Shown: one piece after another, positions 32,549 to 54,418 of the stretch
Layout: each line of letters opens with the position of its first letter
How positions within the stretch are numbered: the stretch's first letter is position 1
Origin: a virus
DNA length: 64,000 nucleotides
Direction: 5' to 3' (one strand)
Virus record (IMG/VR): IMGVR_UViG_3300025000_000064
Location: 1-64,000 of that record
Position numbers and translations under genes: made by a program
Notes under the pieces: model-generated
Seen by the model: only the letters and a program-made list of their open reading frames with translations
Databases searched by the model: none
Told to the model about the DNA's origin: nothing

Positions 32549-32553
32549 CTTGT

Positions 32554-33358: not shown

Positions 33359-33363
33359 TTTTA

Positions 33364-34527: not shown

Positions 34528-34889
34528 TATAAAATTATCCTTTCAATTTCTCTTAAATAATCATGAAAATTATATTTTTTATATACTGTTTTTTGTTCCT
34601 CTTCGTTTAATTTTAATTCTGTTAAACTGCTTTTTGCTGATTCGTTTATATAATAAATATCTTGAATTTGATAATACTCTGTGTCAAATTCACAATCAAT
34701 ATTTTTGCATATTATTTTAAAATACTCATTGTTTTTTGTTTCATAATCATAAGATACAGGAATTTTAAAAACAATTTCTTTTGATATTTCAATATTGTTT
34801 AAAAACTCTTCTTTGTCTTCTTCTGTTTTTAATTCGTCATCAAATAAACTTGTATTTAAATTGACTTTTAATAACTCTGTAATTTGCAT
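34527..34889 (-). CDS. Hypothetical protein
   Basis: ORF in small-gene run. Confidence 0.6.
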   Translation of the reverse strand: MQITELLKVNLNTSLFDDELKTEEDKEEFLNNIEISKEIVFKIPVSYDYETKNNEYFKIICKNIDCEFDTEYYQIQDIYYINESAKSSLTELKLNEEEQKTVYKKYNFHDYLREIERIIL

Positions 34890-35073
34890 TTTATTAACCC
34901 TTTCTTTTTACTCTGTTAATTTTTTTGTGTTCATTTAAAATTAAATCTGTTATTAAATCCGATTCACTTCTTTTATGTTTTTCCTCTTTTATTTCCTCCA
35001 GTTTTTCTATGACTTCAGAATCAAATTTCCAATTTTTTCTTTTTGTTCCCATGCTTGTTCCCTTTATATAATA

Positions 35074-35616
35074 TTAATAACCATATATTCCTTTTATATA
35101 ATGTCCCATAGGCTTAGTGTAATAGTTTAATAATGAACGGCTTATTTCTTCATTATTATAAATCTTATTACATAAATTATCTATATTATCAGAGTTTCTT
35201 ATTTCTCTAAATTCTATATAGTTTGTGCCGTCATGGTGATAACCTTCAAATTTTATATTATAGTTATCGGTATATATTTTATATTCGTCACAGCTAAAAG
35301 AGGCTATAACATCATTTAAATTATTACCTATTATTTTATAGCCTGATTTTTTGCCGTTCCATAACCCCATTGAAGCGATACATATAATATTATTATCAAG
35401 AGTTTTATTTAAATTTTCTTTTTCATCATTATAAAATAAATTAATATCTTCGCATATACAATCTGATAAACTTTCTATTGTATCTTTTTCCTCACCTTCC
35501 ATGCGATTTTCATTTTCTGCATTTACAAAATCTTGCAATTCTTCATCCGTATAAAAACCATAAGTTTTAAAAATTAGATGTTCTTTAACTTGGTATTTTC
35601 TTTTTGTTTTAATCAT
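35074..35616 (-). CDS. Conserved phage hypothetical protein
   Basis: GLWNG...GY and HHDGTNY..FRE motifs; GGAG SD before ATG at 35616. Confidence 0.7.
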   Translation of the reverse strand: MIKTKRKYQVKEHLIFKTYGFYTDEELQDFVNAENENRMEGEEKDTIESLSDCICEDINLFYNDEKENLNKTLDNNIICIASMGLWNGKKSGYKIIGNNLNDVIASFSCDEYKIYTDNYNIKFEGYHHDGTNYIEFREIRNSDNIDNLCNKIYNNEEISRSLLNYYTKPMGHYIKGIYGY

Positions 35617-35648
35617 TTTATAAACTCCGTTTACTTCCAACAAAATTA

Positions 35649-35680
35649 AATATAAACGATTCAATTTCAAAAGTCAACCT
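35649..35680 (-). promoter_or_regulatory. Early-type promoter
   Basis: AGG-TTGACT-17-TATATT. Confidence 0.65.
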
Positions 35681-35960
35681 TTTATTTTAAATGTAAATAT
35701 TTTGTTACAATTCAGCTATATTCAATCTATATTTAAAATTTTAAAAAACTTATATGTATAAATAACTTTACAAAAACTTCTAAAAGCGTTATTTTCAATC
35801 TATGACTAGATTTAAGGCAATTTATAAAATATAATTGTTTTATTCCAGTAAAAAATATTTTATTTAAATTCCTATAACATATTTTATATGTATAAAGAAA
35901 ATAAATAAAATAACACAAAAGTTTTATTTGTCAATATTAATTTTTGACATTAATTTTATA

Positions 35961-35982
35961 TTTTAGAAATGCATTTCTAAAA
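35961..35982. repeat. Perfect 22 bp palindrome
   Basis: TTTTAGAAATGCATTTCTAAAA. Confidence 0.9.
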
Positions 35983-36062
35983 CTTTGTATTTTTGCATGC
36001 TTTTAGAAGTAGAATTTAAAAACCTTTATAGTTGCAAAAATATATTTCTTGAATATGAGCAA

Positions 36063-36205
36063 AAAATGAAAGTAGTTCGAGCCTTCAAAATGAAAAAGTG
36101 CTTGAGTGGATAATTGCACATGCACATGCAATTGCGACAGCATGAGCTGTGCTAAGTAAAATCAAAAGTGGTTCGAGTCGATAAAATGAAAAGGTGTTCG
36201 AGCTG
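36063..36205. repeat. Two pairs of 25 bp-period repeats flanking a CATG hairpin box
   Basis: Cores TTCGAG/CTTGAG at 36076, 36101, 36172, 36197; box CATGCAATTGCGACAGCATGAGCT at 36125-36148. Confidence 0.85.
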
Positions 36206-36211
36206 AAAATT

Positions 36212-36439
36212 TTATCTTGTTCGTTTAGGCTTAGGTTTATTTTTAATATGTTCTCTTGTAGAAAGAATAGCTTTAACGTCATCTGCATAAATCTCAGATG
36301 CAAAATCGTTTCCGCAACAATTATTATTTAATTCCCAACACTCATCATAAATTCCACCATGTTGCCTACATAGTTGCAATATAGCCAATAATCTTTTTGT
36401 GGATTTCCTTTGAAGTTCTTCTATTGGAAATTTAGCCAT
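36212..36439 (-). CDS. Hypothetical protein
   Basis: GGAG SD; L..STKRLL...and KA.L.TREHI pattern seen in phage proteins. Confidence 0.65.
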   Translation of the reverse strand: MAKFPIEELQRKSTKRLLAILQLCRQHGGIYDECWELNNNCCGNDFASEIYADDVKAILSTREHIKNKPKPKRTR

Positions 36440-36598
36440 TTTATTTTATACTCCAATATGTTCTTTTTTATAAATCTTTTAATTATCTTGAAACATAAAT
36501 TTCAGCTTCTGGATATTCTTTGCATTTTTCTAAATATCTATCAACAAATTTTAACAAACCTTCATAATTACCCCATCCATTTATTAACCTCTTTATCC

Positions 36599-36952
36599 TT
36601 ATATTGCTTCTTCCATTAACTTTTTTAATTCTAAAGGTATTGCTTCGTTGCTGAATAGTTTATAATAATATTCCCTTTTTGGAATAAATTCATTGATAGC
36701 AATTATATTATTTATTATATTGCAAATATCAATTTTCTTTATGTATTCTTTTAATTTGGAATTATTCTTTTTCATATTGCATGATTTGCATGAGATAAAA
36801 TAATTATCCAATCTGTTTTCACCGCCTCTAAATTTTGCTTTTATATGGTCAACAGTTACGGTATGCATATTTACTTCTTCGCCACAATAAGCACAGGGAA
36901 TCTTATGAGCTACAGCTATATTTTTTATTCTCTTTTGTGTTACATTGCACAT
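36599..36952 (-). CDS. HNH endonuclease
   Basis: CAYC...TVDHI....GG.N.LDN....C..CN..K. Confidence 0.85.
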   Translation of the reverse strand: MCNVTQKRIKNIAVAHKIPCAYCGEEVNMHTVTVDHIKAKFRGGENRLDNYFISCKSCNMKKNNSKLKEYIKKIDICNIINNIIAINEFIPKREYYYKLFSNEAIPLELKKLMEEAI

Positions 36953-36953
36953 A

Positions 36954-37067
36954 TCAATCTCTTTTTCTGGCGAATATTGTTATTCTCACATTAATACCCT
37001 TAATTTTTTTTACAATATTTAAATCTTTATAAGTGTTTTCAAATCTGCAATAAGACATGTTTGACAT
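36954..37067 (-). CDS. Small protein, MSNMSYCRFENT family (possibly truncated)
   Basis: Not in track; AGGAG SD; 37 aa. Confidence 0.5.
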   Translation of the reverse strand: MSNMSYCRFENTYKDLNIVKKIKGINVRITIFARKRD

Positions 37068-37382
37068 TATTGCTTCTCCTTATTTATAATTTGTAACCGA
37101 AGGACACATAAGCTAAAATCTTCACATTTTTCCTTATTTAATAAACTTTCTTCTCTTTTTTTATCACCATTAACTTTGCAACTAAATCTTCTATCATTTT
37201 CACATATATCACATTGAGTTATCATTTTGTAAAACCTTTCTCAATTATACAATTTGCAGTTTCTTGTTCTACTTCCATGAACATCAAATTGCAATTTTTA
37301 CATATAATCACATCCACATAATTGGGCAGATATATTCTGCTTTTTATAAAGCCCTTATTGCCACATAGACAAGTTCTTTCCA

Positions 37383-37757
37383 TTATTTAATTACCTCTTT
37401 TAATTTTTCCTGTATTAAATTAAATCCTATTTCGTTTCTGTCTACATTTAATATCTTAGAGCATTTATCAATATGTTCTTCAATCATATTTCTGCTATTT
37501 TCATAATAAGAAATAAACTTGCCGAGTTCTAAAACAAAATACTGAAGGTCTTCTTTATCTATGTCTTCTATACTTATTGTTTGCCATTCATCCTGTCCAC
37601 ACCATTCTCTTCTTTCAATAGTAAATTTATTTATAGCATAACTTCCGTTTTCATTTAGTTCAACATCTTTATTTTTTATTACTCTATAACTATAATAACC
37701 TCTTATTCTTGATATTACATTATTGCTATGCCATTTTGTTGATTCAATTCTATTCAT
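37383..37757 (-). CDS. Hypothetical protein
   Basis: AGGAG SD. Confidence 0.65.
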   Translation of the reverse strand: MNRIESTKWHSNNVISRIRGYYSYRVIKNKDVELNENGSYAINKFTIERREWCGQDEWQTISIEDIDKEDLQYFVLELGKFISYYENSRNMIEEHIDKCSKILNVDRNEIGFNLIQEKLKEVIK

Positions 37758-37770
37758 TTTTTTATTCTCC

Positions 37771-38535
37771 TTAACGATTTATTACCAAAATACAAGTTTC
37801 AACCAATGTTCCTGATTCTTTAAATGCTCCTTTATCTAATTTAATAATCTCTGCATTATTATCTTCAACAAATTGCTTAAATAATTTATCCTTTTTTGAA
37901 GAATTAAACTGCCATGATGGTGGGCAAATTGCAACCATATTTCCACCTTTATTTAAAAGACTATATGCTTTCATTATATGGTCAATATAGGCATTTTTTG
38001 AGAAAGGAGGATTCATTATAATACAATCGTATTTAATGTCCTCATTTGCCTTCAGAAAGTCCTCTCCTAGATAGTTGATATTGCTGCTTAAATTATCCTG
38101 TAAATATTTTACATTAACATTGAAAGCTTCATAGCAATCAATTTTAATATCATTATGATAATTTTTCAACGCTTTTATCAAAGCACCCTTTCCAGCAGAG
38201 GGTTCTAATATTCTTGACTTTAAAGTTTTTGATGGAGTTTCATGCCAATTATAACATGCTAAATCTGCAACCATATTTGCTACTTCTTCTGGGGTTTCAA
38301 AAAATTGGTATTCTTTTTTTAAATTAATCGAGTCTCCGTTGCATATATCTTCAAAATAATCAAGGCAACCTTCTTCAAAAACAAATCCTTGTACTTTCTT
38401 TGTCCATTTGCCTGATATTAATTCAATCTTTTTTGCAACATCTTGATATAATTTTCTTTCCATTTTAATATCTGGAAGCTTCAATACATTATCTTCAATT
38501 GTGCATTGTTTTAATATTTCTAATACTTGACTCAT
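37771..38535 (-). CDS. Amino-group DNA methyltransferase (class I SAM)
   Basis: YQFFETP, ILEPSAGKG, IMNPPF. Confidence 0.9.
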   Translation of the reverse strand: MSQVLEILKQCTIEDNVLKLPDIKMERKLYQDVAKKIELISGKWTKKVQGFVFEEGCLDYFEDICNGDSINLKKEYQFFETPEEVANMVADLACYNWHETPSKTLKSRILEPSAGKGALIKALKNYHNDIKIDCYEAFNVNVKYLQDNLSSNINYLGEDFLKANEDIKYDCIIMNPPFSKNAYIDHIMKAYSLLNKGGNMVAICPPSWQFNSSKKDKLFKQFVEDNNAEIIKLDKGAFKESGTLVETCILVINR

Positions 38536-38660
38536 TTTTACAGTTCCTCTATTAATTCTTTAAACTCAGGCAATATAGCTTTTCTTTTTATCCATTCTTT
38601 AAAAGCTATTTCTAATACTTCTTTATGGTTTTGTTTTTCTTTCTCGCTCATATATTCCTC

Positions 38661-38894
38661 TTAAAAATTTAATATTGGTTGCTCTACATATCCCTTTATC
38701 GGATTAATCTTATGAACAATAACCCAATCATTTTCTGACAATCTAAACCCATGAACATCTTCAAGTCTTATGTTATTTGATTTAGCATATTCTCTCATTT
38801 GCCAATCTCCTAGCATTTTTGTTTCGTAATGTTTTTTAGAATAGATATTAAATCCATTGTTTTCTATTTCTTTCCAGCTCCAATTTATTGACAT
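38661..38894 (-). CDS. Hypothetical protein
   Basis: First ORF after promoter. Confidence 0.6.
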   Translation of the reverse strand: MSINWSWKEIENNGFNIYSKKHYETKMLGDWQMREYAKSNNIRLEDVHGFRLSENDWVIVHKINPIKGYVEQPILNF

Positions 38895-38924
38895 ATATCG
38901 TTTCCTTTAGTTTGTTACATATTC

Positions 38925-38955
38925 ATGATATCACAGATGATGTTTTTGTCAACCT
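38925..38955 (-). promoter_or_regulatory. Early-type promoter
   Basis: AGG-TTGACA-16-TATCAT with TGn. Confidence 0.7.
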
Positions 38956-38983
38956 TTTATTCAATACCTATTGTTTTAGATAT

Positions 38984-39187
38984 TTATTTTACCTCACAAT
39001 GTTCTATTGTTATTAAAATCACATATTGAAGTGCATCTTTGAATCCTTGCTCGTGGTAATAATCTTCCGTTGATTCTTGGTTTTCGCACATTGAATTGCT
39101 TTCCTTATAATCATTAATAATTTTTTCAGCCAATTCAGTATCAATAAAACATTTTCTAAATTTATTTAAAGCTTCTTCGGTTAACAT
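38984..39187 (-). CDS. Hypothetical protein
   Basis: AGGAG SD. Confidence 0.6.
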   Translation of the reverse strand: MLTEEALNKFRKCFIDTELAEKIINDYKESNSMCENQESTEDYYHEQGFKDALQYVILITIEHCEVK

Positions 39188-39198
39188 ATTATTTCTCC

Positions 39199-39618
39199 TT
39201 ATTTAATACCAATTATTGCTTTAATTTGATACATTTTATTTAATGATTCAGGGAAACCATATTTTGCCTCTATATAAGAATATAAAAATGATAATACAAT
39301 TTCCAAATTTATGATACTATTTGTGTCGTTTATTTCTTTCTTTTCATGGTTAATATAAAAATCATCAAACCATTTTCCAAAAGATTCTTCTGTTGGCTCT
39401 ACTGTCTGTAAAGCCTCTAATCTTCTTTTATATAAATCCAATAAAGACACTTTCTTATTAATATCTTGGACAAGTGAAGCCTCTTTATATAACAAAAAAC
39501 CTATTTTGAATGAGTCCTCATTAATGTCTTTTTGCAAATCTTCTTTATTGTATTTAATTGCATCAGTTAATCTTTCTGTTGTTTCTTCTAACTTTTGTGC
39601 ATTGCTTTTTCTACCCAT
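39199..39618 (-). CDS. Hypothetical protein
   Basis: ORF in run. Confidence 0.65.
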   Translation of the reverse strand: MGRKSNAQKLEETTERLTDAIKYNKEDLQKDINEDSFKIGFLLYKEASLVQDINKKVSLLDLYKRRLEALQTVEPTEESFGKWFDDFYINHEKKEINDTNSIINLEIVLSFLYSYIEAKYGFPESLNKMYQIKAIIGIK

Positions 39619-39630
39619 TGTTTTGTCCTT

Positions 39631-39870
39631 TTATTTCAAATAACAATCATTTAAATAAACAATATCTATTCTTCTGGCAAGCATTTTGCATTGTATTGTA
39701 TGTATATCTTCTTTTGTTCCAGATATTGTTATTTTTGTTTCTTCGTTTGTATTGATATTATTTTCCAACATCATCATGCTTATTTCCTCATCAAAGCATG
39801 GATAATCTTGCTTGAATACTTCTAGTTCTGCTTTATTCTCAAACGCTATTTCTAAAGATGTTCTAATCAT
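39631..39870 (-). CDS. Hypothetical protein
   Basis: ORF in run. Confidence 0.6.
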   Translation of the reverse strand: MIRTSLEIAFENKAELEVFKQDYPCFDEEISMMMLENNINTNEETKITISGTKEDIHTIQCKMLARRIDIVYLNDCYLK

Positions 39871-40087
39871 GACAATCCCCTAATTATTTAAACCTAATAC
39901 ATCTGAAGCGAAAGTACCAAAATCATAATATGTATCTGTTAGTTTGTTTGATTTGCAGAAAAACATAAATGATGTAAAGTCTTTGGCTAAGCTTTTACCA
40001 ATGCAAAAGTTATCAAACCAATATCTGATGTTTTCTATTTCTTCGTTGTACGTCATAGATTCTCCTTACCTTTGCTTCCACTCTATT

Positions 40088-40119
40088 ATCTTAATCTGTA
40101 ATATATATTTTGTCAACCT
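40088..40119 (-). promoter_or_regulatory. Early-type promoter
   Basis: AGG-TTGACA-17-TAAGAT. Confidence 0.7.
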
Positions 40120-40125
40120 TTATTT

Positions 40126-40350
40126 TTATTTGTTACAATAAATTAATCTTTTCAAGTATTTATTCAATAATACCCAATCATATCCTATCTTCTCAAAGTT
40201 ATATGTTTTGCCAAATATTTTTAAAGAAGGTATTCCGTCATTATATATTAATTTCCTTCTTCCTGCAAATGGCACTGTGATATATCCACCCTGAATATAG
40301 TTACTGGATAAAACTAAATCTTTCCCTTTTATAATTTCAGATATGTGCAT
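40126..40350 (-). CDS. Hypothetical protein
   Basis: ORF in run. Confidence 0.55.
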   Translation of the reverse strand: MHISEIIKGKDLVLSSNYIQGGYITVPFAGRRKLIYNDGIPSLKIFGKTYNFEKIGYDWVLLNKYLKRLIYCNK

Positions 40351-40388
40351 TTAAATTATTCCCCTATTTAATTTGTTTTATCTTTTAG

Positions 40389-40664
40389 TTATGTATAAAA
40401 GAACCACATTGTTGCTCTAGGATTAAATCTTGCTAATTCTTCTATCTCGTAATCAGTTAAACCAATATCTTTCATATCTTCTTTAGAAGCATAATCTTTT
40501 ATATCAAAACTTCTGAGTATTTGTTGTTCTTCTTCAATTAATTTTCTTAAAAAAGTTATTTCTACTATACGACCATCTGAATGGATAACCTCAGATTGAA
40601 TTCGTGCTTTATTATCTATCTTATATATTGTATTAATTATTGTTTTAAATTTTTTAATGTCCAT
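40389..40664 (-). CDS. Hypothetical protein
   Basis: Coupled ORF. Confidence 0.6.
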   Translation of the reverse strand: MDIKKFKTIINTIYKIDNKARIQSEVIHSDGRIVEITFLRKLIEEEQQILRSFDIKDYASKEDMKDIGLTDYEIEELARFNPRATMWFFYT

Positions 40665-40959
40665 TTATAACTTCTTTCTTTTTACTTGGATAAACATTAT
40701 AAGCTGATGTTAGAACAGTAACTTTCTTGCCTGTTTGATTTGCTAAAGACTGAGCTTCTTTCAATGCAGAATCTAAGCCAGAACAGACAGGAGTTTCTTT
40801 GTGTTTAAAATTAAAATATGGTATTAGATTTAATAATTGTTCTAATTTACCTTTTTTGAGTTTTGCTTTTCTTTTTGAATCCAAATGTTTATAGTGATTA
40901 TCTTTTGGGCTTCCTGATACAATACAGATTGAATACTTTCTTTTGTCTTCTTTAATCAT
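40654..40959 (-). CDS. Hypothetical protein
   Basis: AGGAG SD. Confidence 0.6.
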   Translation of the reverse strand: MIKEDKRKYSICIVSGSPKDNHYKHLDSKRKAKLKKGKLEQLLNLIPYFNFKHKETPVCSGLDSALKEAQSLANQTGKKVTVLTSAYNVYPSKKKEVINGH

Positions 40960-40960
40960 T

Positions 40961-41146
40961 CTAATTCTCCTTATTTATTTTTTCCATATATTCATTAACT
41001 TTTCTTAATTTAATCTTGCTTTTTGCGATGTTTGCCAATGTTGACAATATCTTTATTTTTTTGCCTTCCAATTCTTCTATATTATTCTTTGCTTCCGTTG
41101 TTAGCCTAAACATCTTTCTTTCTGTTTTTATTTCTTTTTTAATCAT
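40961..41146 (-). CDS. Hypothetical basic protein
   Basis: AGGAG SD. Confidence 0.6.
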   Translation of the reverse strand: MIKKEIKTERKMFRLTTEAKNNIEELEGKKIKILSTLANIAKSKIKLRKVNEYMEKINKEN

Positions 41147-41156
41147 TTATTTCTCC

Positions 41157-41450
41157 TTATATAAACAGTTCGCTCCATTCATAATCTAACTCTACAATGT
41201 TTTTTAAAGCTATATCATTATATCTTTTATTATAGTTTAAATTATTTAATCTCAAACAAAATAAAAAATAAAACAATTGAGATATTGCACTATGCTCTTT
41301 TATGCTGAATTTTACCATTAGAAACTTAACGGCATTATAGAATATATCTAAATTAAAACAATGCCTTACTCCTGTTCCTGAGATAACATATCCTGTTTTA
41401 CTATTTAATTTGTTTGTAACTAATTTTCTCGCAAAATTATAGCCTTTCAT
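41157..41450 (-). CDS. Hypothetical protein
   Basis: AGGAG SD. Confidence 0.6.
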   Translation of the reverse strand: MKGYNFARKLVTNKLNSKTGYVISGTGVRHCFNLDIFYNAVKFLMVKFSIKEHSAISQLFYFLFCLRLNNLNYNKRYNDIALKNIVELDYEWSELFI

Positions 41451-42206: not shown

Positions 42207-42229
42207 AAAAATAGTGCATTTCTGCACTA
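42207..42229 (-). terminator. Rho-independent terminator closing the MII operon
   Basis: TAGTGCA-GAAA-TGCACTA followed by T5. Confidence 0.75.
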
Positions 42230-42255: not shown

Positions 42256-42594
42256 TTATAACGAACTTACACGCACATTGTTTATTGTTAAACTTACCAT
42301 TGCTGGCAAAATATTTCTTAATCGTTTATGTAAAAAGAATAATTCTACATTTGATATATTGTCTAAATAAAGTTTTAAATAATGATTATTTATGACAATA
42401 CCAATATTGTCATATCCAATTCTATATAGGATATCTCTTAAATTTTGCTCTGAGGATATACAATACATACCAGAGGTATAAGAATCATTCAAGATATTAT
42501 TTAATCTATCAAGATTTATTTCTTCAAATTGAAAATCACGAAATCCTCGTTCTATTATTCTCGTATTTTTAAAATCAATATCTTTAATAATCAT
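42256..42594 (-). CDS. MII-family small protein (MIIKDIDF, 112 aa)
   Basis: Starts inside the YDY-stop of the upstream gene (ATGATTATTAA overlap). Confidence 0.7.
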   Translation of the reverse strand: MIIKDIDFKNTRIIERGFRDFQFEEINLDRLNNILNDSYTSGMYCISSEQNLRDILYRIGYDNIGIVINNHYLKLYLDNISNVELFFLHKRLRNILPAMVSLTINNVRVSSL

Positions 42595-42781
42595 AAAAAT
42601 TCTCTATCTTTAATTTAGTTTGAGCCTCTATCCAATGTTTAAATCTTGAAAAACACTGTTTTTTATAACAATATGTCATGAGTGGCTTTAAAGATGAAAA
42701 TTCCTGCAAATTTATCAACCCTATCATTCTTTCTATTGATATAGGCTTGTTATAATCACACATAATTGTTTTGATAATCAT
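42584..42781 (-). CDS. MII-family small protein (MIIKTIMC, 65 aa)
   Basis: TAATG overlap with the HNH gene. Confidence 0.7.
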   Translation of the reverse strand: MIIKTIMCDYNKPISIERMIGLINLQEFSSLKPLMTYCYKKQCFSRFKHWIEAQTKLKIENFYDY

Positions 42782-43620
42782 TATGCAACCTTGTTTAATT
42801 TACTATCAACTTTATCTTTTATCCATTGTGGAATATCTGATTGATTGATATCTTTTACCAAATAAGAATTAGGGAAAATATATTTTAAGGCATATTTTGC
42901 TATTGCAATAGCCTCATTCCTGTCTTTATAAAATCCAAAATCTATATTTTTCTTATTTTTTATAAAACTTATTCTATATCCCCATTTAGTTTCAATAACT
43001 CCTCGAAACAAACCATTAAATTTAGTTATATTTTGATTATTTTCTACCATTGTACATATTCTCAAATTTTCACGTCTATTATCTAATGGGTTTCCGTTTA
43101 TATGGTCAACAACCATGCCTTTTGGACAATTCATTATAAATCTATGTAGGGATATAGAATCTTTCTTGGTAATCATTACATAATTATTTTTTTTAACATA
43201 CCATCTGTTTCTAATTACCCTTCCTAAGTCTTCTAAAGAAATTAGAAATTCTTTTGTTTCTGCGTTGTCTTTATGTACATAAATAATTACATAATTATTA
43301 CATATTTTATAATTATTGTTTGTATTTAGTTTGTATTTTCTTAAATTATGCAATTTTCTTCTGTTGTCCACACATGAAACTTTACATCCAATAAGTTTCG
43401 CAAGTTCTTTATCGGGCAAGCTTGCATTGTTTTTTAATATTTCTGTGTGTTCATTCGTCCAGATAAAAAAATTACTTTTGCGCAATTTTAATTTTTTGGC
43501 TTTTGCCGAAATAGATTTTTTAGACCTGTTTGGCAGCAACATTAAGAGATTATCAATGTCCAGTTTTGAATAATTATCTTTTAGCAATTTTTCTTCTTTT
43601 TCTGTCCACAATTCTGCCAT
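42781..43620 (-). CDS. HNH endonuclease with N-terminal Myb-like repeats and AP2-like C-terminus
   Basis: WTEKEEKLLKDNY / WTNEHTEILKNN; LHRFIM....VDHINGNPLDNRRENLR; FRGV...GFY....EA. Confidence 0.85.
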   Translation of the reverse strand: MAELWTEKEEKLLKDNYSKLDIDNLLMLLPNRSKKSISAKAKKLKLRKSNFFIWTNEHTEILKNNASLPDKELAKLIGCKVSCVDNRRKLHNLRKYKLNTNNNYKICNNYVIIYVHKDNAETKEFLISLEDLGRVIRNRWYVKKNNYVMITKKDSISLHRFIMNCPKGMVVDHINGNPLDNRRENLRICTMVENNQNITKFNGLFRGVIETKWGYRISFIKNKKNIDFGFYKDRNEAIAIAKYALKYIFPNSYLVKDINQSDIPQWIKDKVDSKLNKVA

Positions 43621-44177
43621 TAGTCAATCTGCTTCCTAATATATCCACTAATATCGACACTGTTTTGTTGTCTCACTTCATAGAAACCTCTGCATAGCAC
43701 TCTCTGACCATGTTCTTGGTGGGCTAAGAACGTACCCTCGCCTAGTTCTATATACATATTTCCAACTGTTGTGCTTTTCATCCAATCAGAAACAGGCAAT
43801 CCCATTTTTGAATAAGCTTCGTGTTGGTTTATGCCTTTTGATTCATAAATTTTAAATGCGCTATTGGCACTTACTAACCTGTGAGTATTCCCATTTAAAG
43901 TGGACTGGGTGAGAATATCTGTATTGGATATTTTTAATTCTAAATCAAATTTTTTAGGGTCAACGAAATGCCTTGAAGAATTTCTTAAAATCAAACAATC
44001 TCCCTGTCTTGCAATTGGAGTCTTTTCATTAATGGTAATATCTGACCAGTCTTCTTTATTTCTTCCTAATAAGTCGCATATGTCTTGAACTGTCCAGTCT
44101 TCTGTAACTGGGGCTATTTTTTGAATGTTTTCTGTTGATAGCTCAATGGCTTCTCTTGTTAAAATTTTTGTTTCCAT
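43620..44177 (-). CDS. RQGD...H...HxEH family protein
   Basis: ARQGDCLI, GNTHRL, LAHQEHG...L..G.YEVRQQ. Confidence 0.65.
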   Translation of the reverse strand: METKILTREAIELSTENIQKIAPVTEDWTVQDICDLLGRNKEDWSDITINEKTPIARQGDCLILRNSSRHFVDPKKFDLELKISNTDILTQSTLNGNTHRLVSANSAFKIYESKGINQHEAYSKMGLPVSDWMKSTTVGNMYIELGEGTFLAHQEHGQRVLCRGFYEVRQQNSVDISGYIRKQID

Positions 44178-44207
44178 TTTGTTCTCTCTTTCTTTTGTTT
44201 GTAAATT

Positions 44208-44363
44208 CTAATTAAATACTAAATATTTTGTTCTTATCAATTCTTTTATTGTTCTTTCAAACCTACCATTAATTAAACTTTGAGTCGCACAAAATCCTCT
44301 GTTTTTATACCATCCAAAATCCACATTATTGACTTTGATTATTTTAACTTCTTTTATTATCAT
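44208..44363 (-). CDS. MII-family small protein (MIIKEVKI, 51 aa)
   Basis: Hand-translated, not in track. Confidence 0.5.
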   Translation of the reverse strand: MIIKEVKIIKVNNVDFGWYKNRGFCATQSLINGRFERTIKELIRTKYLVFN

Positions 44364-44366
44364 AAT

Positions 44367-44414
44367 CTAATATCTGTCCTTTGTCAATCTGTTGAACATT
44401 TGCTTAATAATCAT
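44367..44414 (-). pseudogene. MII-family 15 aa fragment (MIIKQMFNRLTKDRY)
   Basis: Overlaps upstream YDY-stop; ends TAG, in frame with the next MII ORF. Confidence 0.4.
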
Positions 44415-44616
44415 AACTTCTACCAAAAATATTATAGCTATCATATAGCCTCGTACATCTTTCTCCAATTTGCAAGCCTATATTTTTCATTGGAACAGAA
44501 ATACGATAATGCTCATTGTCAAATATCTTTATTAATGTTTCTTCCAAAGTCACTTCCGTGAACATATTTATCTCAAATGTTCCAGTGTCTATGATTCTGA
44601 AAGTCTTAATTATCAT
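44404..44616 (-). CDS. MII-family small protein (MIIKTFRI, 70 aa)
   Basis: ORF track; coupled at both ends. Confidence 0.7.
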   Translation of the reverse strand: MIIKTFRIIDTGTFEINMFTEVTLEETLIKIFDNEHYRISVPMKNIGLQIGERCTRLYDSYNIFGRSYDY

Positions 44617-44779
44617 AGTATCTCCACCTTAATCGATATAAGGAAGAGGCATAATCCTTATAATCTAAAGGGTCTGTTATAAGAAACTCTGGGTAAATAT
44701 ATTTTTCATGATACTTATATCCCATAGTTAAGAAATAATTTTCTTTTAATTTACTCTTTGTGGCTTTTATTATTATCAT
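44606..44779 (-). CDS. MII-family small protein (MIIIKATK, 57 aa)
   Basis: Hand-translated; KYIYPEFLI; ends YYDN-stop over the next ATG. Confidence 0.7.
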   Translation of the reverse strand: MIIIKATKSKLKENYFLTMGYKYHEKYIYPEFLITDPLDYKDYASSLYRLRWRYYDN

Positions 44780-44931
44780 TGCAATCTATACTCATAACAT
44801 GCCCACATACAACATTTTTTATCATTAAACGTAAATGATTTATTCTTAACAAAGCCTCTACATATATGCCAAACTAATCCATTGCATGGAACATATAATA
44901 TTTCAAAATCCTTTATTGCTTTAATTATCAT
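44776..44931 (-). CDS. MII-family small protein (MIIKAIKD, 51 aa, Cys/Trp-rich)
   Basis: Hand-translated; AAGGAG SD; ATGA overlap. Confidence 0.7.
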   Translation of the reverse strand: MIIKAIKDFEILYVPCNGLVWHICRGFVKNKSFTFNDKKCCMWACYEYRLQ

Positions 44932-44956
44932 TTATTATTTCTCCTTATGCAGTTTG

Positions 44957-45106
44957 CTAAAAATCGCAATGATTCCAGAACCTATTAGTATAACGCTCTT
45001 TAGTATATTCGTTATATTCAGGATACATAAATAAATACACAGTATCTGTCAACAAATAATCTCCATCATCAAATATAGGAATACGGATTGCGTTCTTAAT
45101 TATCAT
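44957..45106 (-). CDS. MII-family small protein (MIIKNAIR, 49 aa)
   Basis: GGAGG SD before ATG at 45106; LFMYPEY. Confidence 0.7.
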   Translation of the reverse strand: MIIKNAIRIPIFDDGDYLLTDTVYLFMYPEYNEYTKERYTNRFWNHCDF

Positions 45107-45407
45107 ATAAATATTCCTCCAAGCTATTATTCCATGAGCCATAATTGGGTTCTCTACTACTTGTATAATAATTCTTAATCATAACCTCTTTGCATGACTT
45201 TGAATATTTTACCAAAAACTCTGGGTATAAATGCTTATTATATACAGCTTGATATGATTTAAATACTTCTTTATTTATATCTAAATAATACAAATTATTA
45301 TTGTCATTTTTATTATAAAATTTATAACATGGTATTCTATAAAAATATTTTCTGAGTCTCCCAGATTGACTTGCAAAGTTTTTACTGTAAGCATCTTTTA
45401 TTATCAT
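45096..45407 (-). CDS. MII-family small protein (MIIKDAYS, 103 aa)
   Basis: ATGA overlap at 45404-45407; KHLYPEFLV. Confidence 0.7.
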   Translation of the reverse strand: MIIKDAYSKNFASQSGRLRKYFYRIPCYKFYNKNDNNNLYYLDINKEVFKSYQAVYNKHLYPEFLVKYSKSCKEVMIKNYYTSSREPNYGSWNNSLEEYLYDN

Positions 45408-45577
45408 ACTGCAACCCATTCTATCAAATAACCATTTTCATTCTTGCTTCTTTTGGCTCGTTTAACATCTCCGCTAATAAATGGATAACAGACAATTCCT
45501 TTATCAAATGTTCTGTTCCAGATAAAAATTTCTACTTCATAATATTTTTTGTTAATTCTGATTTCTCTAATTATCAT
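45404..45577 (-). CDS. MII-family small protein (MIIREIRI, 57 aa)
   Basis: Hand-translated; AGGA SD; IVCYPF. Confidence 0.7.
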   Translation of the reverse strand: MIIREIRINKKYYEVEIFIWNRTFDKGIVCYPFISGDVKRAKRSKNENGYLIEWVAV

Positions 45578-45584
45578 AATAAAA

Positions 45585-45755
45585 TCATCCTATTAATTTC
45601 CAGTTAAAGTCAGTTGTATTCATTTGAGGTTTTCCATATGCTATTAAGCCAGTATTGTGATGATAATAACAATCCTCTATATAATTCAAAAGGGTTCTGC
45701 TATTGTAAAATGGCTTGTCTATTCCTGTTATTATCCTAAATTGTTTAATAATCAC
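45585..45755 (-). CDS. MII-family small protein (GTG start, IIKQFRI, 56 aa)
   Basis: Hand-translated; GTGA overlap. Confidence 0.65.
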   Translation of the reverse strand: MIIKQFRIITGIDKPFYNSRTLLNYIEDCYYHHNTGLIAYGKPQMNTTDFNWKLIG

Positions 45756-45928
45756 AATATATCACTCAATTTTAATCCGTATAAATAATAGTATTTTTCG
45801 ATATATTCATCTAAGTCGTTGTATTGGGCTGGATAATATATCTTAAACCAATAATCTTTAAACATAGAGCATAATTGACCATGTTTATTTGTTGCAGATT
45901 TTATTAATTTTATTGTTTTGATAATCAT
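45752..45928 (-). CDS. MII-family small protein (MIIKTIKL, 58 aa)
   Basis: Hand-translated; TAATG overlap; KIYYPAQY. Confidence 0.7.
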   Translation of the reverse strand: MIIKTIKLIKSATNKHGQLCSMFKDYWFKIYYPAQYNDLDEYIEKYYYLYGLKLSDIL

Positions 45929-46086
45929 TATATCTCTTTTCTGAAGCTATAAAATGCGTTTGTATTATACCCAATCAAAGCTCTCTTACAAATAATAAAC
46001 TCTGGATATATTTTTATTCTATCTTGGCTATTTGTATGCAATATAAAAACTTCATGGTAATGCTTATAGGCATCCAATATAATCAT
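45928..46086 (-). CDS. MII-family small protein (MIILDAYK, 52 aa)
   Basis: Hand-translated; ATGA overlap; IKIYPEFII. Confidence 0.7.
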   Translation of the reverse strand: MIILDAYKHYHEVFILHTNSQDRIKIYPEFIICKRALIGYNTNAFYSFRKEI

Positions 46087-46235
46087 AGTAATTCCTTTAT
46101 CATATCATCAAATATGAAATCCTCCTTTGATAAATATTCATAAAAGCATGCATCAAATTCTTTTAAAAATATTCTATTTGATATATAGTTTCTCTGAAAA
46201 TATTTTCTTAAAAATGATTTATCTATTATTATCAT
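46083..46235 (-). CDS. MII-family small protein (MIIIDKSF, 50 aa)
   Basis: Hand-translated; 3 nt after the upstream stop. Confidence 0.65.
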   Translation of the reverse strand: MIIIDKSFLRKYFQRNYISNRIFLKEFDACFYEYLSKEDFIFDDMIKELL

Positions 46236-46238
46236 TAT

Positions 46239-46514
46239 TTATCCATCTCTTCTAAAATTAAACTTGGACTCAATTAGATATTTTATTTTAAAGATATCTT
46301 TAATGTTTAAGCTTTTTATTGCTTTGTTTAACTCTAAATACAACTTCTTCCTTATATCACATTCTGGAATTAATGTTAGTTGCTTACAGTGGCTCTTATA
46401 TTCAATTCCACCTATCTCTGGGCAAAATTTGTTCCCAAAATAGTCTGTTTCAAATCTTAAGAATGCATCATCTGGCAAGTCTTTTATTAATTCTCTAAAT
46501 TCTTTTAAATACAT
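46239..46514 (-). CDS. Hypothetical protein
   Basis: MYLKEFRELIKDLPDDA, common phage N-terminus. Confidence 0.65.
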   Translation of the reverse strand: MYLKEFRELIKDLPDDAFLRFETDYFGNKFCPEIGGIEYKSHCKQLTLIPECDIRKKLYLELNKAIKSLNIKDIFKIKYLIESKFNFRRDG

Positions 46515-46674
46515 TGCTTTCCTTCCATTTGCTATTTTTAAAAAAATAAGCCATATCGAATTTATGATAATCTTCTGCCATCTTTACAATATCATCCTTG
46601 TCGGAAATATCACTAAATAATGCAGAAATTAATAAATAGTTAAATTTATAAGATATAACTCTTCTTAATATCAT
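46495..46674 (-). CDS. MII-like small protein (MILRRVIS, 59 aa)
   Basis: Hand-translated; ATGA overlap with the upstream gene. Confidence 0.55.
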   Translation of the reverse strand: MILRRVISYKFNYLLISALFSDISDKDDIVKMAEDYHKFDMAYFFKNSKWKESNVFKRI

Positions 46675-47336
46675 ATCTGAAAAGCAATTCCTTCTTCTGC
46701 AAAATCAATACCAGCATTCATGCAACACAGATGCTCTTTGACTGTATTAAATGTTGAAGGTTGAATATAATGTCTATTAGATGTCGGACACCAGTATTCT
46801 ATAAAAGATATGCCCCTTATTGCATTATCTCTTCTGCTGAATCCGTTTCTGTTATCAAACAATGAATCATCTTTTAATCTATATAAATTATATAAAGAAC
46901 CTTTAACTTCGCAAGAATCTATTTTGTTGAATAAATCAGGACTCATAATTTTTGCTAAATCAACTCTTTCCATAAACCATGCAATCAAATCTGCATTTGT
47001 TATTGATAGAATATCTTGAATTGTGATATTCTTTAAATCAACAAGTTTTTCTTCTATTGGCGTGAATGGAGATGATGTTTCAAACACTGCTTGCTCAACA
47101 TAATTAAAACTTGATTCGTCTTTGGCATGTGTTTTAATTTCACCTTTTGGCACTTCTGTTAATACAAAGAATTGGTATTTGTCTTCAACGATATCATAGC
47201 AACACATGAAGTCCAAGCCAATATCTCTCAGGTCATGTGTGATGATTCTTTTGTTGACGTTAATCTCTGAATTGAAATAGTTCAATGATTGTTCTTTAAC
47301 AAAACTCTTGATTTCTTTTAAGTCTTTTGCTGTCAT
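46671..47336 (-). CDS. DUF6745-like protein
   Basis: I.DIL.I.NA......., YNLYRL, Y.CPTS.R.Y motifs recalled for this family. Confidence 0.55.
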   Translation of the reverse strand: MTAKDLKEIKSFVKEQSLNYFNSEINVNKRIITHDLRDIGLDFMCCYDIVEDKYQFFVLTEVPKGEIKTHAKDESSFNYVEQAVFETSSPFTPIEEKLVDLKNITIQDILSITNADLIAWFMERVDLAKIMSPDLFNKIDSCEVKGSLYNLYRLKDDSLFDNRNGFSRRDNAIRGISFIEYWCPTSNRHYIQPSTFNTVKEHLCCMNAGIDFAEEGIAFQI

Positions 47337-47351
47337 TGTTTTCTCCTTTTT

Positions 47352-47609
47352 CTATTTACTGTATACTTTTACTGGTAACCCTTTATTATATATAAATCTG
47401 TATAATTCTGCAACGTATGTTTTTGCCCATTTTGATTTTTCTAAATTGTATGTATTCAGTTTGGCAATTATTAAATCTTCTGGTATATATCTCATCAAGA
47501 AAGAGCCTAAATTATACATTCTGAATCTTCTACTTTCTATATTGTTAGAAATATAGGCAATATCATGAGATGGAGCGAAAGCATATATTTTATTTTTCAT
47601 GATTATCAT
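47352..47609 (-). CDS. MII-family small protein (MIIMKNKI, 85 aa)
   Basis: ORF track; RYIPED. Confidence 0.65.
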   Translation of the reverse strand: MIIMKNKIYAFAPSHDIAYISNNIESRRFRMYNLGSFLMRYIPEDLIIAKLNTYNLEKSKWAKTYVAELYRFIYNKGLPVKVYSK

Positions 47610-47790
47610 TATATCATACCATTATATTTATCTGCAATATGTTCATTAAAATATTCACGTCCATGCCTTAGAGAGGCTTTCATATATCCAGCCACCCATA
47701 TCTTAAGCCTTCTGGATAAAGGACAAACTCATTATTTGCATAATTATAAACAATGGCATTTCTTATATATTTGTCTCTCAATATTATCAT
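47609..47790 (-). pseudogene. Split MII-family gene: 36 aa MIILRDKY (47680-47790) plus 24 aa MKASLRHG (47609-47683)
   Basis: Hand-translated; FVLYPEG in first part; parts overlap by ATGA and sum to about one member length. Confidence 0.45.
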
Positions 47791-47800
47791 ACATTTATTC

Positions 47801-48016
47801 CTATGTCTTTTTTAAAATATTTACATTTTCATAAGGGACTTTTAGTTTATCTTCAAATTGTTTTCTTAATTTAGCATGAAGATTATAAGAATTATAATAT
47901 TCTATCGCCCCTAATAAACAGTATTCTGGAAGAACATATTCTAAAACACATGAGTTTATGAATTGCACTTTAAGGTTTTTGTTAGGAGATTTATCTAAGA
48001 AATTTACTATTATCAT
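47801..48016 (-). CDS. MII-family small protein (MIIVNFLD, 71 aa)
   Basis: ORF track; YVLPEY. Confidence 0.65.
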   Translation of the reverse strand: MIIVNFLDKSPNKNLKVQFINSCVLEYVLPEYCLLGAIEYYNSYNLHAKLRKQFEDKLKVPYENVNILKKT

Positions 48017-48081: not shown

Positions 48082-48261
48082 TTATAAACTTTGATAATAC
48101 TTCTTTGCCTCTTTTAAAAGAGAAAGTAGTTCTATATATTTTTTTTTATCCTCTATTGCTTTCTCTATTCTGGGGACAAGTACTGGACAATCTTTTTTAA
48201 AATAATCCCTTCTTTGTTCCAATTCTCTTAATGTTTGAGCATGTATATATGTATATTTCAT
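48082..48261 (-). CDS. Hypothetical 59 aa protein
   Basis: Not in track; AGGAG SD; MKYTYIHAQTLRELE. Confidence 0.6.
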   Translation of the reverse strand: MKYTYIHAQTLRELEQRRDYFKKDCPVLVPRIEKAIEDKKKYIELLSLLKEAKKYYQSL

Positions 48262-48274: not shown

Positions 48275-48712
48275 CTATTTTATTTCTATTGCCTCTTTAT
48301 TTTTATGTTTTGTGTGCCAATAATAATCATAGCATGGAATATCATTTGGAAATATGTCTTTATAAAATTCATAATTCTTAAATAATAAAGCTTGCCTATG
48401 ACTTCTATGAAATTCTTCTAAGCCAATGAATTCTGGCAATGAAAAATTATCATTAATATTGACATCATATAATTTCATTGTGTTTTTATATCCTCGTCTT
48501 ATCCATTCTAAAATCATACAATTGCAATAATATTTTAATGCTTCTATATTATCTTTCCACATCAATGTTGCAGGGTGATTCTTCCAGCCTTTTGATTTAT
48601 TTTCTAATGTATTTATAATCTGAAAAGCCTCCACTCTTTGCTTTCCGAGCCTTCTATAGTCTAAAGCTTTTGCTGATTCATTAAAGTCAGGAAACGGTAA
48701 AAATGTTTGCAT
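48275..48712 (-). CDS. Pyrimidine dimer DNA glycosylase-like protein (MSMEG_6728 family)
   Basis: MQTFLPFPDF..SA..LD.RRLGKQRVEA.QI, HPA..MW, H.SHR..LL.K. Confidence 0.85.
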   Translation of the reverse strand: MQTFLPFPDFNESAKALDYRRLGKQRVEAFQIINTLENKSKGWKNHPATLMWKDNIEALKYYCNCMILEWIRRGYKNTMKLYDVNINDNFSLPEFIGLEEFHRSHRQALLFKNYEFYKDIFPNDIPCYDYYWHTKHKNKEAIEIK

Positions 48713-48765: not shown

Positions 48766-48797
48766 ATAATATATCCACTTGGGGGATTTGTCAACCT
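48766..48797 (-). promoter_or_regulatory. Early-type promoter heading the MII operon
   Basis: AGG-TTGACA-17-TATTAT. Confidence 0.7.
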
Positions 48798-52298: not shown

Positions 52299-52571
52299 TT
52301 ATATATTTGTTACAATATTAAAAGGCTGTACATTTGTCATGCTCTTTGTTAATTCTATGGTAAAACAAAGCTTTCTCTCTTTTTTATATTTCTTCTTCAG
52401 TTTCCTTGGAAGTTTTGTTCTCTTTACCTTGTATCTGATTATATTATTTTTAGCACACATATTATCAAGATAAAGAGATATATTATTTTTATATAATTTT
52501 TGCTTGTCTATAATAGGTGTGACTAAATAATGTTTTAAATACTCACATAATTCATTCTTTATATTTTCCAT
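52299..52571 (-). CDS. Hypothetical protein
   Basis: Overlaps the end of the A1-like gene. Confidence 0.5.
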   Translation of the reverse strand: MENIKNELCEYLKHYLVTPIIDKQKLYKNNISLYLDNMCAKNNIIRYKVKRTKLPRKLKKKYKKERKLCFTIELTKSMTNVQPFNIVTNI

Positions 52572-54418
52572 GAATATTTACCTTTATGATTTATCATATT
52601 GATTAGAGTTCTGCTTCCATTTGGATATATAATTCCCATGCAGTGAATCCATGCACTTGGACCTTTAACATATGTTAATTTTAGTTTAGACAATGTTCCT
52701 GTCTGATAAACTCCTCTATGGATGCATGGAGAATGAGAGTGACATATAAATGATTTTTCATAGCATCTTTCTATATTTTTAGCAGAACCCTTACTTCCAT
52801 TTGGACCAAGATGTCCATGATTATTCATCTGAATACCACTTATTTTATAATCTTCATCATAATCTAGCCATTTTACTTCTATATCTTTAGATATTCCGAT
52901 TTGTTCTTCCATCATAAATTTTAAAGGATTTTTGCCATCTATCAAAGCTTTGCATAAATCTAAAGAATATCTTAAATTACATGGGTCATTTATGAATCTT
53001 CCCTCTTCCAAATATCTATCAAGAAAAGCATCATGGTTTGACCGAACAATAAATATTTTGCCATCAATCCAACTCCCAACATCTTCAAGATATGCTTTTA
53101 TTATGTTGCCTTCTTTTTCTATTGAGCTTATCCCCTGCAAGTTATTTATGGCTCTTATTGCTGGTTTATTTTGTATATGGTGACTTATGCATTCCCCATC
53201 AAATATATCGTGTAAAAATATGTCTTTTATATTATTAAAATAAACAATTTTTTTTACTTCTTTGTGAATATTATCATCTTTTACTGATATGTGAGAATCA
53301 CCAAAGACAGCCGTTGAGCCAAATATATCCTGTATGCTTCCATCTGAGAAATATTCTGTATTTAAATCGGCTATACTATTATTGTCGCTTATTTGTATTT
53401 GCCTGAAATGAAATATTTCATCACTCTCTATTTCTACAACTATAGCTCCTATTATATGGTCATTTTCTGCTATTTTAGATAATCTCTTACTCATATAATA
53501 GTCATTAGAATTATAATCATTCTCCGTTATTGCACCTGTACTCATTATAGCTAAAGGTAGCTTATAATTAGAAGTGGGAATGAACTCTAAGAATTGCTTT
53601 GTTGAGGCTAAAATCATGCTTCCATTTTTTTGAGCTAAACGAGATAAGCCAGTTAAAGGCAATATTTGTTTGGCTGATACTTTTATGTCGGACAGAAATA
53701 TATTATTATTAAGATAAGTATCATCATGAATAACACAAAAATCTTTTAATTTAGGAGGAAGTTGCCATTGGTATTCGCTAATTCTGCTTGCTATATCTTC
53801 ACATGGCAATATTAAAACTAAGGCATCGTTATTTTCTGAATAATTCTTTAAAGCTTTATAAAAACCTTCATGTATTTTCTTTCCAGAAACTGCGGTTGTT
53901 ATTACGAATCTTTTATATCTCTTTATTTTTTCATTTACTTTGTCATCGTATTCTTTTGTTAGCATACTTTCGTTTAATATATTTTCATTCAATTCTGGAT
54001 AATCTAATAATGTTTGATTATATAGTTCCATCATATTAGAATATTCTTCTTTAAAATTTAATTTTGTTTTAAAGAAACTTTCATAGTCTTTTTTTGTTGG
54101 AACAAAATTATTTAATTCTATATATTTTTTTAAATTATCTTTAATTACTTTAAATGTCAAATCTTCGCTTTTTATATTTAGCTTAAGTTGAGGCTGAGTA
54201 ATCGGCACTGGAAAAAATAAATTTCTTGCAACTGCAAAGCCACCAAGTTCTGTTAAGTTGTCTTTATGGATACGAGGACTAAAATTATTATCAATAACAC
54301 AACGTATATATTCATCTCTTTTTATTTCATTAACGGGAATGTTTAATAAAACAGAAACTTCTTTCATTGAAGATTTAAATAATTCAATTAAATCTTTATT
54401 GGGAATATTCTTAACCAT
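52559..54418 (-). CDS. T5 A1-like protein, metallophosphoesterase/nuclease fold
   Basis: RFVITTA, PLTGL, STGAIT...Y, H.IGA..VEI, FGDSH, HDIFDG..ISHH, SNHD.FLDRY, HGH.GPNG, HSHSP. Confidence 0.7.
   Translation of the reverse strand: MVKNIPNKDLIELFKSSMKEVSVLLNIPVNEIKRDEYIRCVIDNNFSPRIHKDNLTELGGFAVARNLFFPVPITQPQLKLNIKSEDLTFKVIKDNLKKYIELNNFVPTKKDYESFFKTKLNFKEEYSNMMELYNQTLLDYPELNENILNESMLTKEYDDKVNEKIKRYKRFVITTAVSGKKIHEGFYKALKNYSENNDALVLILPCEDIASRISEYQWQLPPKLKDFCVIHDDTYLNNNIFLSDIKVSAKQILPLTGLSRLAQKNGSMILASTKQFLEFIPTSNYKLPLAIMSTGAITENDYNSNDYYMSKRLSKIAENDHIIGAIVVEIESDEIFHFRQIQISDNNSIADLNTEYFSDGSIQDIFGSTAVFGDSHISVKDDNIHKEVKKIVYFNNIKDIFLHDIFDGECISHHIQNKPAIRAINNLQGISSIEKEGNIIKAYLEDVGSWIDGKIFIVRSNHDAFLDRYLEEGRFINDPCNLRYSLDLCKALIDGKNPLKFMMEEQIGISKDIEVKWLDYDEDYKISGIQMNNHGHLGPNGSKGSAKNIERCYEKSFICHSHSPCIHRGVYQTGTLSKLKLTYVKGPSAWIHCMGIIYPNGSRTLINMINHKGKYSWKI

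Follow-up and report, generated by a model that had tools for sequence, protein, structure and literature searches.

The MII array

The stretch analysed (the window, 64,000 nucleotides) is the first 64 kb of IMG/VR record IMGVR_UViG_3300025000_000064, the 123,605-bp genome (28% G+C) of an uncultured tailed phage. Between 42256 and 48016, its minus strand carries 17 open reading frames (ORFs) of 15-112 amino acids (aa), all beginning Met-Ile-Ile (MII). Twelve of these are consecutive (44208-46235), and 12/17 are 49-71 aa long. The 17 ORFs, and one further ORF starting MILR, were all found where an earlier note on this DNA had placed them. As set out below, the array makes up a small-gene family that is new, restricted to one lineage and marked by an invariant tripeptide in an unusual place. 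Members are listed here and referred to by start position (the higher coordinate in each line); the ‘YPEF group’ and the leave-one-out hidden Markov model (HMM) are described below.

47801-48016, minus strand: MII ORF, 71 aa (MIIV...), LPEY motif; possible YPEF-group member, missed by the leave-one-out HMM
47680-47790, minus strand: MII ORF, 36 aa (MIIL...), YPEG motif, YPEF group; leave-one-out rank 26 of about 2225
47352-47609, minus strand: MII ORF, 85 aa (MIIM...), IPED motif; possible YPEF-group member, missed by the leave-one-out HMM
46083-46235, minus strand: MII ORF, 50 aa (MIII...); public gene calls
45928-46086, minus strand: MII ORF, 52 aa (MIIL...), YPEF motif, core YPEF group; leave-one-out rank 1
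45752-45928, minus strand: MII ORF, 58 aa (MIIKTIKLIK...); public gene calls
45585-45755, minus strand: MII ORF, 56 aa, GTG start (MIIKQFRII...); public gene calls, strain variants
45404-45577, minus strand: MII ORF, 57 aa (MIIREIRIN...); public gene calls
45096-45407, minus strand: MII ORF, 103 aa (MIIKDAYS...), YPEF motif; leave-one-out rank 29
44957-45106, minus strand: MII ORF, 49 aa (MIIKNAIR...), YPEY motif; leave-one-out rank 53; GGAGGA 8 nt upstream
44776-44931, minus strand: MII ORF, 51 aa (MIIKAIKD...), 5 Cys; public gene calls, strain variants
44606-44779, minus strand: MII ORF, 57 aa (MIIIKATK...), YPEF motif, core YPEF group; leave-one-out rank 1
44404-44616, minus strand: MII ORF, 70 aa (MIIKTFRII...); public gene calls, strain variants
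44367-44414, minus strand: 15-aa ORF, MIIKQMFNRLTKDRY, between two full members
44208-44363, minus strand: MII ORF, 51 aa (MIIKEVKII...); public gene calls, strain variants
42584-42781, minus strand: MII ORF, 65 aa (MIIKTIMCDYNK...); 91%-identical orthologue, also with a MIIK start, in metagenome contig L001
42256-42594, minus strand: MII ORF, 112 aa (MIIKDIDFK...); 77%-identical orthologue in L001, ratio of nonsynonymous to synonymous substitution rates (dN/dS) 0.37 over 108 codons

The 15-aa MIIKQMFNRLTKDRY ORF is probably a remnant of a decayed array member; a promoter-like sequence, TTGACA-17-TATGAT (44387-44359), overlaps this ORF and the next start. The N-termini of the 45407 and 45106 members are uncertain, as each has an alternative in-frame ATG further upstream, at 45419 (12 nt, giving 107 aa) and 45142 (36 nt, giving 61 aa) respectively, and these longer forms are the choice of public gene callers.

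Shared N-terminus

Residues 2-3 are invariant in 17/17 members. Residue 4 is Lys in ten members, Ile or Leu in two each and Arg, Val or Met in one each (bias z = 4.1 against other small genes), residue 6 is hydrophobic with a weak bias (z = 2.8), and residue 7 onward is at background. The shared motif, M-I-I-(K/aliphatic)-x-hydrophobic, is short. The Ile codons vary (codon 2: ATA 11, ATT 6; codon 3: ATA 7, ATT 7, ATC 3), and wobble usage over both codons (ATA 18, ATT 13, ATC 3) matches Ile usage of the genome (57/36.5/6.6%). Since the Ile wobble bases are free, the starts have not simply been homogenised by gene conversion. Invariant first and second codon positions together with genome-like wobble are consistent with selection on the amino acids, in agreement with the peptide-level selection proposed in the earlier note from the variation in Ile codons.

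The ORFs starting at 42781 and 45928 are identical over 20 nt, comprising the first 17 nt of each gene and 3 nt upstream, which suggests recent exchange or duplication of 5′ ends. This stretch (TAATGATTATCAAAACAAT plus one base) lies at 42765-42784 and 45912-45931, in front of bodies that are otherwise unrelated. Among strain variants, a change at the start site was seen just once, the conservative I3V of P0008, a variant of the 45106 member with an MIV start; the same base change turns the C-terminus of the upstream gene from YDN into YDS.

Junctions and frequency of MII starts

Gaps between MII starts and the upstream stop are -11 nt (four genes), -4 (four), -1 (two), +3 (two), +7, +10, +25, +65 and +70, so that 10/17 starts overlap the previous stop and 14/17 lie within 10 nt of it. 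The earlier description of nearly all members as overlapping or abutting is slightly generous, given three real spacers of 25-70 nt. Four junctions have the form ATGATWATTAA, where the upstream stop lies inside the fourth codon of the next gene; this 11-nt form forces upstream C-termini of YDN or YDY. ATGATWAT was also considered as an internal -10 promoter element, and dropped because a transcript from there would miss the gene’s own start codon.

Genome-wide counts were made on a crude call of 225 genes (22 in the array, 203 elsewhere). MII begins 17/22 array genes versus 2/203 elsewhere. Among stop/start-coupled genes it begins 12/15 in the array versus 1/92 outside (Fisher p = 2e-12), and among small coupled genes outside the array 0/43. 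An AT-rich stop-start artefact, which the earlier note had named as what would refute it, is thereby rejected. Furthermore, as seven MII genes have no overlap and three of these follow spacers of 25-70 nt, coupling cannot be the cause of MII. The commonest other start, MNK (15 genes), is scattered genome-wide, followed by MIK (7), MIN (5) and MKI (5). Starting with ‘MI’ is a general trait of the small genes of this phage, seen in 24/203 genes outside the array. Upstream of the array, in an AT-rich region (28000-41200, minus strand, 21-28% G+C), many small genes start M-I-(K/N/E/R/T) and none starts MII.

Coding status and strain variation

Exact copies of all members looked up were identified in public gene calls, on 5-12 contigs each (12 for the 47609 ORF). 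Strain variants differ by substitutions, in-frame indels of 3 and 7 aa (e.g. the 3-aa deletion in P0009, a variant of the 48016 ORF) and small stop shifts. The strain relatives seen carry the same genes at 74-100% identity, which does not bear out the idea that the set is interchangeable. A metagenome scan gave one further relative, the 1.47-kb contig L001, with orthologues of the last two members, both starting MIIK. The dN/dS value of the 112-aa member against L001 (0.37 over 108 codons) indicates purifying selection on this member; the 65-aa member has too few changes to judge. Divergence from L001 is mosaic, with 59%, 91% and 77% identity for a 185-aa gene, the 65-aa gene and the 112-aa gene, respectively. 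The HNH endonuclease gene of the unit (42781-43620) is absent from L001 (633-785) between the same two neighbours, and is therefore a strain-specific insertion.

Dicodon scoring used a stop-free background, with shadow ORFs inside long genes as control. MII ORFs score far higher than shadow ORFs (p = 2e-8). A purine-rich run resembling a ribosome-binding site precedes about half of the members. Taken together, the exact gene calls, in-frame strain indels, dN/dS value and dicodon scores agree with the earlier treatment of the MII ORFs as genuine genes, and to judge from these sequence signatures they look like real genes.

Bodies of the array proteins

Beyond the N-terminus, the motif hPE[FYGD], typically YPEF, is present in 7/16 bodies (shuffle mean 0.13, maximum 2 in 2000), at residues 25-29 in 5/7 carriers. 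A leave-one-out HMM built from bodies alone placed five YPEF members at ranks 1, 1, 26, 29 and 53 of about 2225 genome ORFs, and missed the 48016 and 47609 members. P0008, the variant of the 45106 member, differs by a 7-aa in-frame indel, keeps YPEFILGINGYNEY and restores a canonical YPEFIL. In the YPEF group residues 5-6 are [DNK]-A, i.e. they track the body family, which fits descent by duplication. DNA similarity over 20-38 nt joins several 5′ ends and YPEF-coding segments. The YPEF group (five to seven members) is a diverged paralogue family and not unrelated cargo. The earlier statement that the bodies are mostly unalignable stands for about 10 members, but does not extend to the five to seven that share the YPEF motif.

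Members in general are rich in Tyr and other aromatic residues (Y 9.7% versus 5.6% in other small genes) and mildly basic (median isoelectric point (pI) 8.9). A second candidate sub-family, ‘W..R-G/N/T-F’, gave p of about 0.01 in a post-hoc motif count, failed the leave-one-out test and was rejected.

Distribution

Pfam and PHROG searches gave no match for members (none below E = 0.01, 10 members), the YPEF alignment, run as a profile against PDB, gave none (E >= 0.14), and Rfam gave none for the array. Among 5.8 billion and 1.8 billion proteins, the members themselves and strain variants (>=74% identity) were the sole matches; phmmer with the 103-aa member against the 1.8 billion representatives found the protein itself only. 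No match to the array was obtained by blastn against GenBank phages. Single-protein pattern scans of IMG/VR (221-aa gene, terminase, A1-like gene, 112-aa pair and 70-aa member) identified no close relative, and a DNA scan of the same collection for three MIIK starts spaced as in the array identified no comparable array. Two matches from the latter were discarded as chance, one being a repeat protein on the other strand and one an unrelated virus.

Across 75 phage loci anchored on homologues of the A1-like gene of this phage, at most four scattered MII ORFs were found per 20 kb, none in tandem. The 83-kb contig CAYQSO010000002.1, with an A1-like protein of 53% identity, has no array and only 6 proteins in common with the source phage. 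ESM Atlas gave no usable neighbours for the 112-aa or 221-aa protein, and PDB sequence searches with other genes of the unit (221-aa, 185-aa) gave no match. As far as the searched collections show, the array appears specific to this phage lineage.

Setting of the array

The array belongs to a co-directional, tightly packed unit of about 6.5 kb on the minus strand. The promoter at its head and the terminator at its end, both proposed previously, are present as consensus matches. Remaining features of the unit, and two modules elsewhere in the window, are:

48766-48794, minus strand: promoter-like TTGACA-17-TATTAT at the head of the unit; consensus scan, 11/12 matches; putative
48275-48712, minus strand: pyrimidine-dimer DNA glycosylase (DenV-like), 145 aa, first gene of the unit; Pfam PF03013, E = 2.3e-26
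48082-48261, minus strand: 59-aa ORF, start MKY, without family match
46671-47336, minus strand: 221-aa acidic protein, start MTAK, inside the array; without Pfam, PHROG, PDB or Atlas match
46495-46674, minus strand: 59-aa ORF, start MILR, a near miss to the motif; present in public gene calls
46239-46514, minus strand: 91-aa ORF, start MYLK, without family match
43620-44177, minus strand: 185-aa protein; phrog_27831 (unknown function), E = 1.4e-5; 59%-identical orthologue in L001
42781-43620, minus strand: HNH homing endonuclease, 279 aa; PF13392 9e-11, phrog_99 1.6e-20
42212-42229, minus strand: terminator-like GAAA-loop hairpin followed by a T run, end of the unit; putative
52559-54418, minus strand: T5 A1-like protein (metallophosphatase, ‘DNA transfer protein’); phrog_1745, 2e-89
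1-22 kb: head and tail module (terminase, portal, maturation protease, scaffold, major head protein, tape measure)

The array lies >20 kb away from the head module, among nucleic-acid-metabolism genes; nearby are the DenV-like glycosylase, HNH endonuclease, methyltransferases, a polynucleotide kinase and the A1-like gene. With a sigma-70-like promoter and neighbouring genes of these types, the genomic context of the array looks early. The head-maturation protease (phrog_94, 1.3e-19) and a scaffold-like gene are located at 15.4-17.3 kb. No match to a RegA-like repressor (PF01818) was found across the whole 123.6-kb genome, and no maturase-like gene was detected in the unit by Pfam or PHROG scans.

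Origin and possible role of the array

The reading favoured here, which we hold with trust and doubt in about equal measure, is that the array grew by tandem expansion into a family of small early accessory proteins, which diverge fast and yet retain an N-terminal element from their ancestor. This reading best accounts for genes of similar size lying in tandem, their common composition, the partial paralogy, the behaviour of residues 5-6 and the 15-aa remnant. From these we infer a history in which the 17 genes would have arisen through many rounds of tandem duplication, with copies both gained and lost. The bodies would then have diverged very fast, leaving the YPEF motif common to five to seven and the rest no longer alignable, while selection on amino acids would have held the first residues as M-I-I-(K/aliphatic)-x-hydrophobic. 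Translation of most members would be coupled in a chain. As for the N-terminal element, it is probably an ancestral first hydrophobic strand or anchor; each mini-protein may depend on it for folding or for contact with one common partner, and the variable remainder could set individual specificity. Judging from context alone, the role might lie in accessory early functions, e.g. host takeover or counter-defence.

Several observations weigh against this reading. Pairwise Smith-Waterman scores of bodies are no higher than those of shuffles, and hhalign of YPEF bodies against other bodies gave probabilities of <1%. For about ten bodies, no similarity was detected either among themselves or with the YPEF group, so that descent of all members from one ancestor is an assumption. 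An ordinary diverged family conserves best a scatter of core positions; that residues 2-3, and exactly these, persist in proteins of 36-112 aa is more in keeping with a signal independent of the body. AlphaFold2 models had a predicted local distance difference test (pLDDT) score of 47 (YPEF alignment) and 44 (70-aa member), and are unusable for the ‘first strand’ idea. Dicodon scores of MII ORFs, far above those of shadow ORFs, are nevertheless below those of other small phage genes, and the early expression timing is putative, being drawn solely from a consensus promoter match.

Such a body-independent signal could be an N-terminal tag, M-I-I-(K), of three to six residues on otherwise unrelated early mini-proteins that share one common fate, the variable bodies being effectors. 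This tagged effector library, proposed in the earlier note, is possible, although we consider it unlikely. The reader of the tag might be a chaperone, a modifying enzyme, a protease that keeps lifetimes short, or a host or phage machine with a docking site for it. An initiator Met followed by Ile should stay in place, given the specificity of methionine aminopeptidase, and every member would therefore present the same N-terminus. Residues 2-3 are invariant in 17/17, yet about 10 bodies are unalignable and lengths range over 36-112 aa; the conservation pattern fits amino-acid-level selection, the motif is kept also in members without stop/start coupling, and the sole strain start-site variant, I3V in P0008, is conservative. 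However, three to six residues are very few for specific recognition, and no candidate partner or enzyme was found, the 221-aa and 185-aa genes of the unit having no informative match. Residues 5-6 co-vary with the body family, as in descent and unlike a portable module, and the motif-plus-array combination occurs in no other phage searched, with no sign of a conserved system. Less probable still is a signal at the level of translation, in which AUG-AUH-AUH-(AAR) sets the yield of short coupled cistrons via re-initiation and an early-elongation ‘ramp’. ATGATWATTAA places stop codons in both other frames, so that any upstream frame ends inside the next start; 10/17 starts overlap the previous stop, four of them with the 11-nt form, and K/N/I-rich N-termini such as MNK, MIK, MIN and MKI are common in the genome. 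There is also a precedent in E. coli reporter libraries, where codons 3-5 strongly change yield and K, N, Y and I are favoured, a class that includes both Ile and Lys (PMC6920384). A general rule would nevertheless be expected in other coupled genes, where MII is found in 1/92 (0/43 if small). Ile-Ile is invariant even though other A/U-rich codons would be equally suitable; seven members have no overlap, three of them having spacers of 25-70 nt, and the genome has no RegA-type repressor.

Targeting to the capsid, by which an MII leader would pack the proteins into the head for injection with the DNA, as for IPI, IPII and IPIII of phage T4, is very improbable. The array is a variable set of small proteins, most of them basic (median pI 8.9), with one N-terminus, and the phage has a head-maturation protease and scaffold. 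In T4, ipII and ipIII adjoin denV, which we counted in favour of this explanation; the likeness to the DenV-headed unit here is presumably coincidence. The T4 capsid targeting sequence is a 10-residue propeptide in which positions 4 and 7 determine targeting, and it is processed at 8 and 10 after L/I-x-E (PMC9026906). The piece shared in the array is residues 1-4 (to 6), an [LI]xE among residues 1-22 is seen in 4/17 members, at positions 3, 3, 11 and 13, and so at no fixed site, and the early-type unit is >20 kb from the head genes. The analogy with T4 internal proteins drawn in the earlier note thus fails where testable. Hardly credible, finally, is that the ORFs are not genes at all, but chance open frames or decayed remnants in which the ATGATWAT repeats act as a DNA or RNA element. 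The low dicodon scores relative to other small genes, the lack of homologues outside the lineage and the clearly degenerate 15-aa copy would agree with this. Against it stand sixteen open frames, 36-112 codons long and laid end to end on one strand at 27% G+C, dicodon scores far above shadow ORFs, in-frame strain indels, the dN/dS of 0.37 for one member, free Ile wobble positions and the lack of any Rfam match.

Comparison with known systems

In large phages, small early or accessory genes can form paralogous tandem families (hyperplastic regions). The array resembles these in being back-to-back, co-oriented, coupled, fast-diverging and without database relatives, and in the paralogy of the YPEF group; unlike these families, where similarity runs along the protein, its only all-member feature is the N-terminal tripeptide. 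Arrays of precursors of ribosomally synthesized and post-translationally modified peptides (RiPPs; e.g. prochlorosin-type) combine a conserved leader with a hypervariable core. The MII array likewise consists of many tandem short genes with a constant N-terminal part and a variable remainder, but the leader is far too short, members reach 112 aa and the unit has no detected maturase-like gene. The T4 proteins IPI, IPII, IPIII and Alt, like the array, form a variable cluster of small dissimilar proteins sharing only the N-terminus, in a large lytic phage, and the internal proteins counter host restriction (PMC3012670; PMC9026906). The array differs in its 3-6 shared residues, absence of a protease site, early-type unit, different head lineage and lack of sequence similarity. 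The N-terminal ‘translational ramp’ of E. coli is a general preference (PMC6920384), whereas the array has an invariant tripeptide in one gene cluster.

Phage early regions abound in tiny uncharacterised genes, and are the source of many known counter-defence and host-takeover proteins. The array, where selection keeps only the first three residues and nearly all else varies, is a natural test case for what the extreme N-terminus of a small protein may be (a folding nucleus, docking tag, lifetime signal or translational ramp), and the operon offers seventeen parallel replicates. Were MII a signal, it would be among the shortest shared tags known in phages; if a tag, it might send the proteins to a single host or phage machine, mark them for degradation at a set time or lead to their modification. 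Were it merely an inherited remnant, the array would be an ordinary lineage-specific gene family.

Relationships of the source phage

The major head protein has at most 30% identity to that of any GenBank phage, with about 30% to Roseobacter and Arthrobacter siphophages. A ‘T5-like’ label for the phage was considered and dropped: A1-like proteins are present in many unrelated phages, and the A1-like gene is therefore no marker of T5 kinship. This gene has hundreds of relatives at 40-58% identity in uncultured phage contigs, and its closest GenBank match is in an Ochrobactrum jumbo phage (40% identity). CAYQSO010000002.1 (83,277 bp; L079-L085), found in a ‘Candidatus Saccharibacteria’ metagenome-assembled genome, carries the A1-like gene and five other shared proteins, and looks like a phage contig within a bacterial bin.

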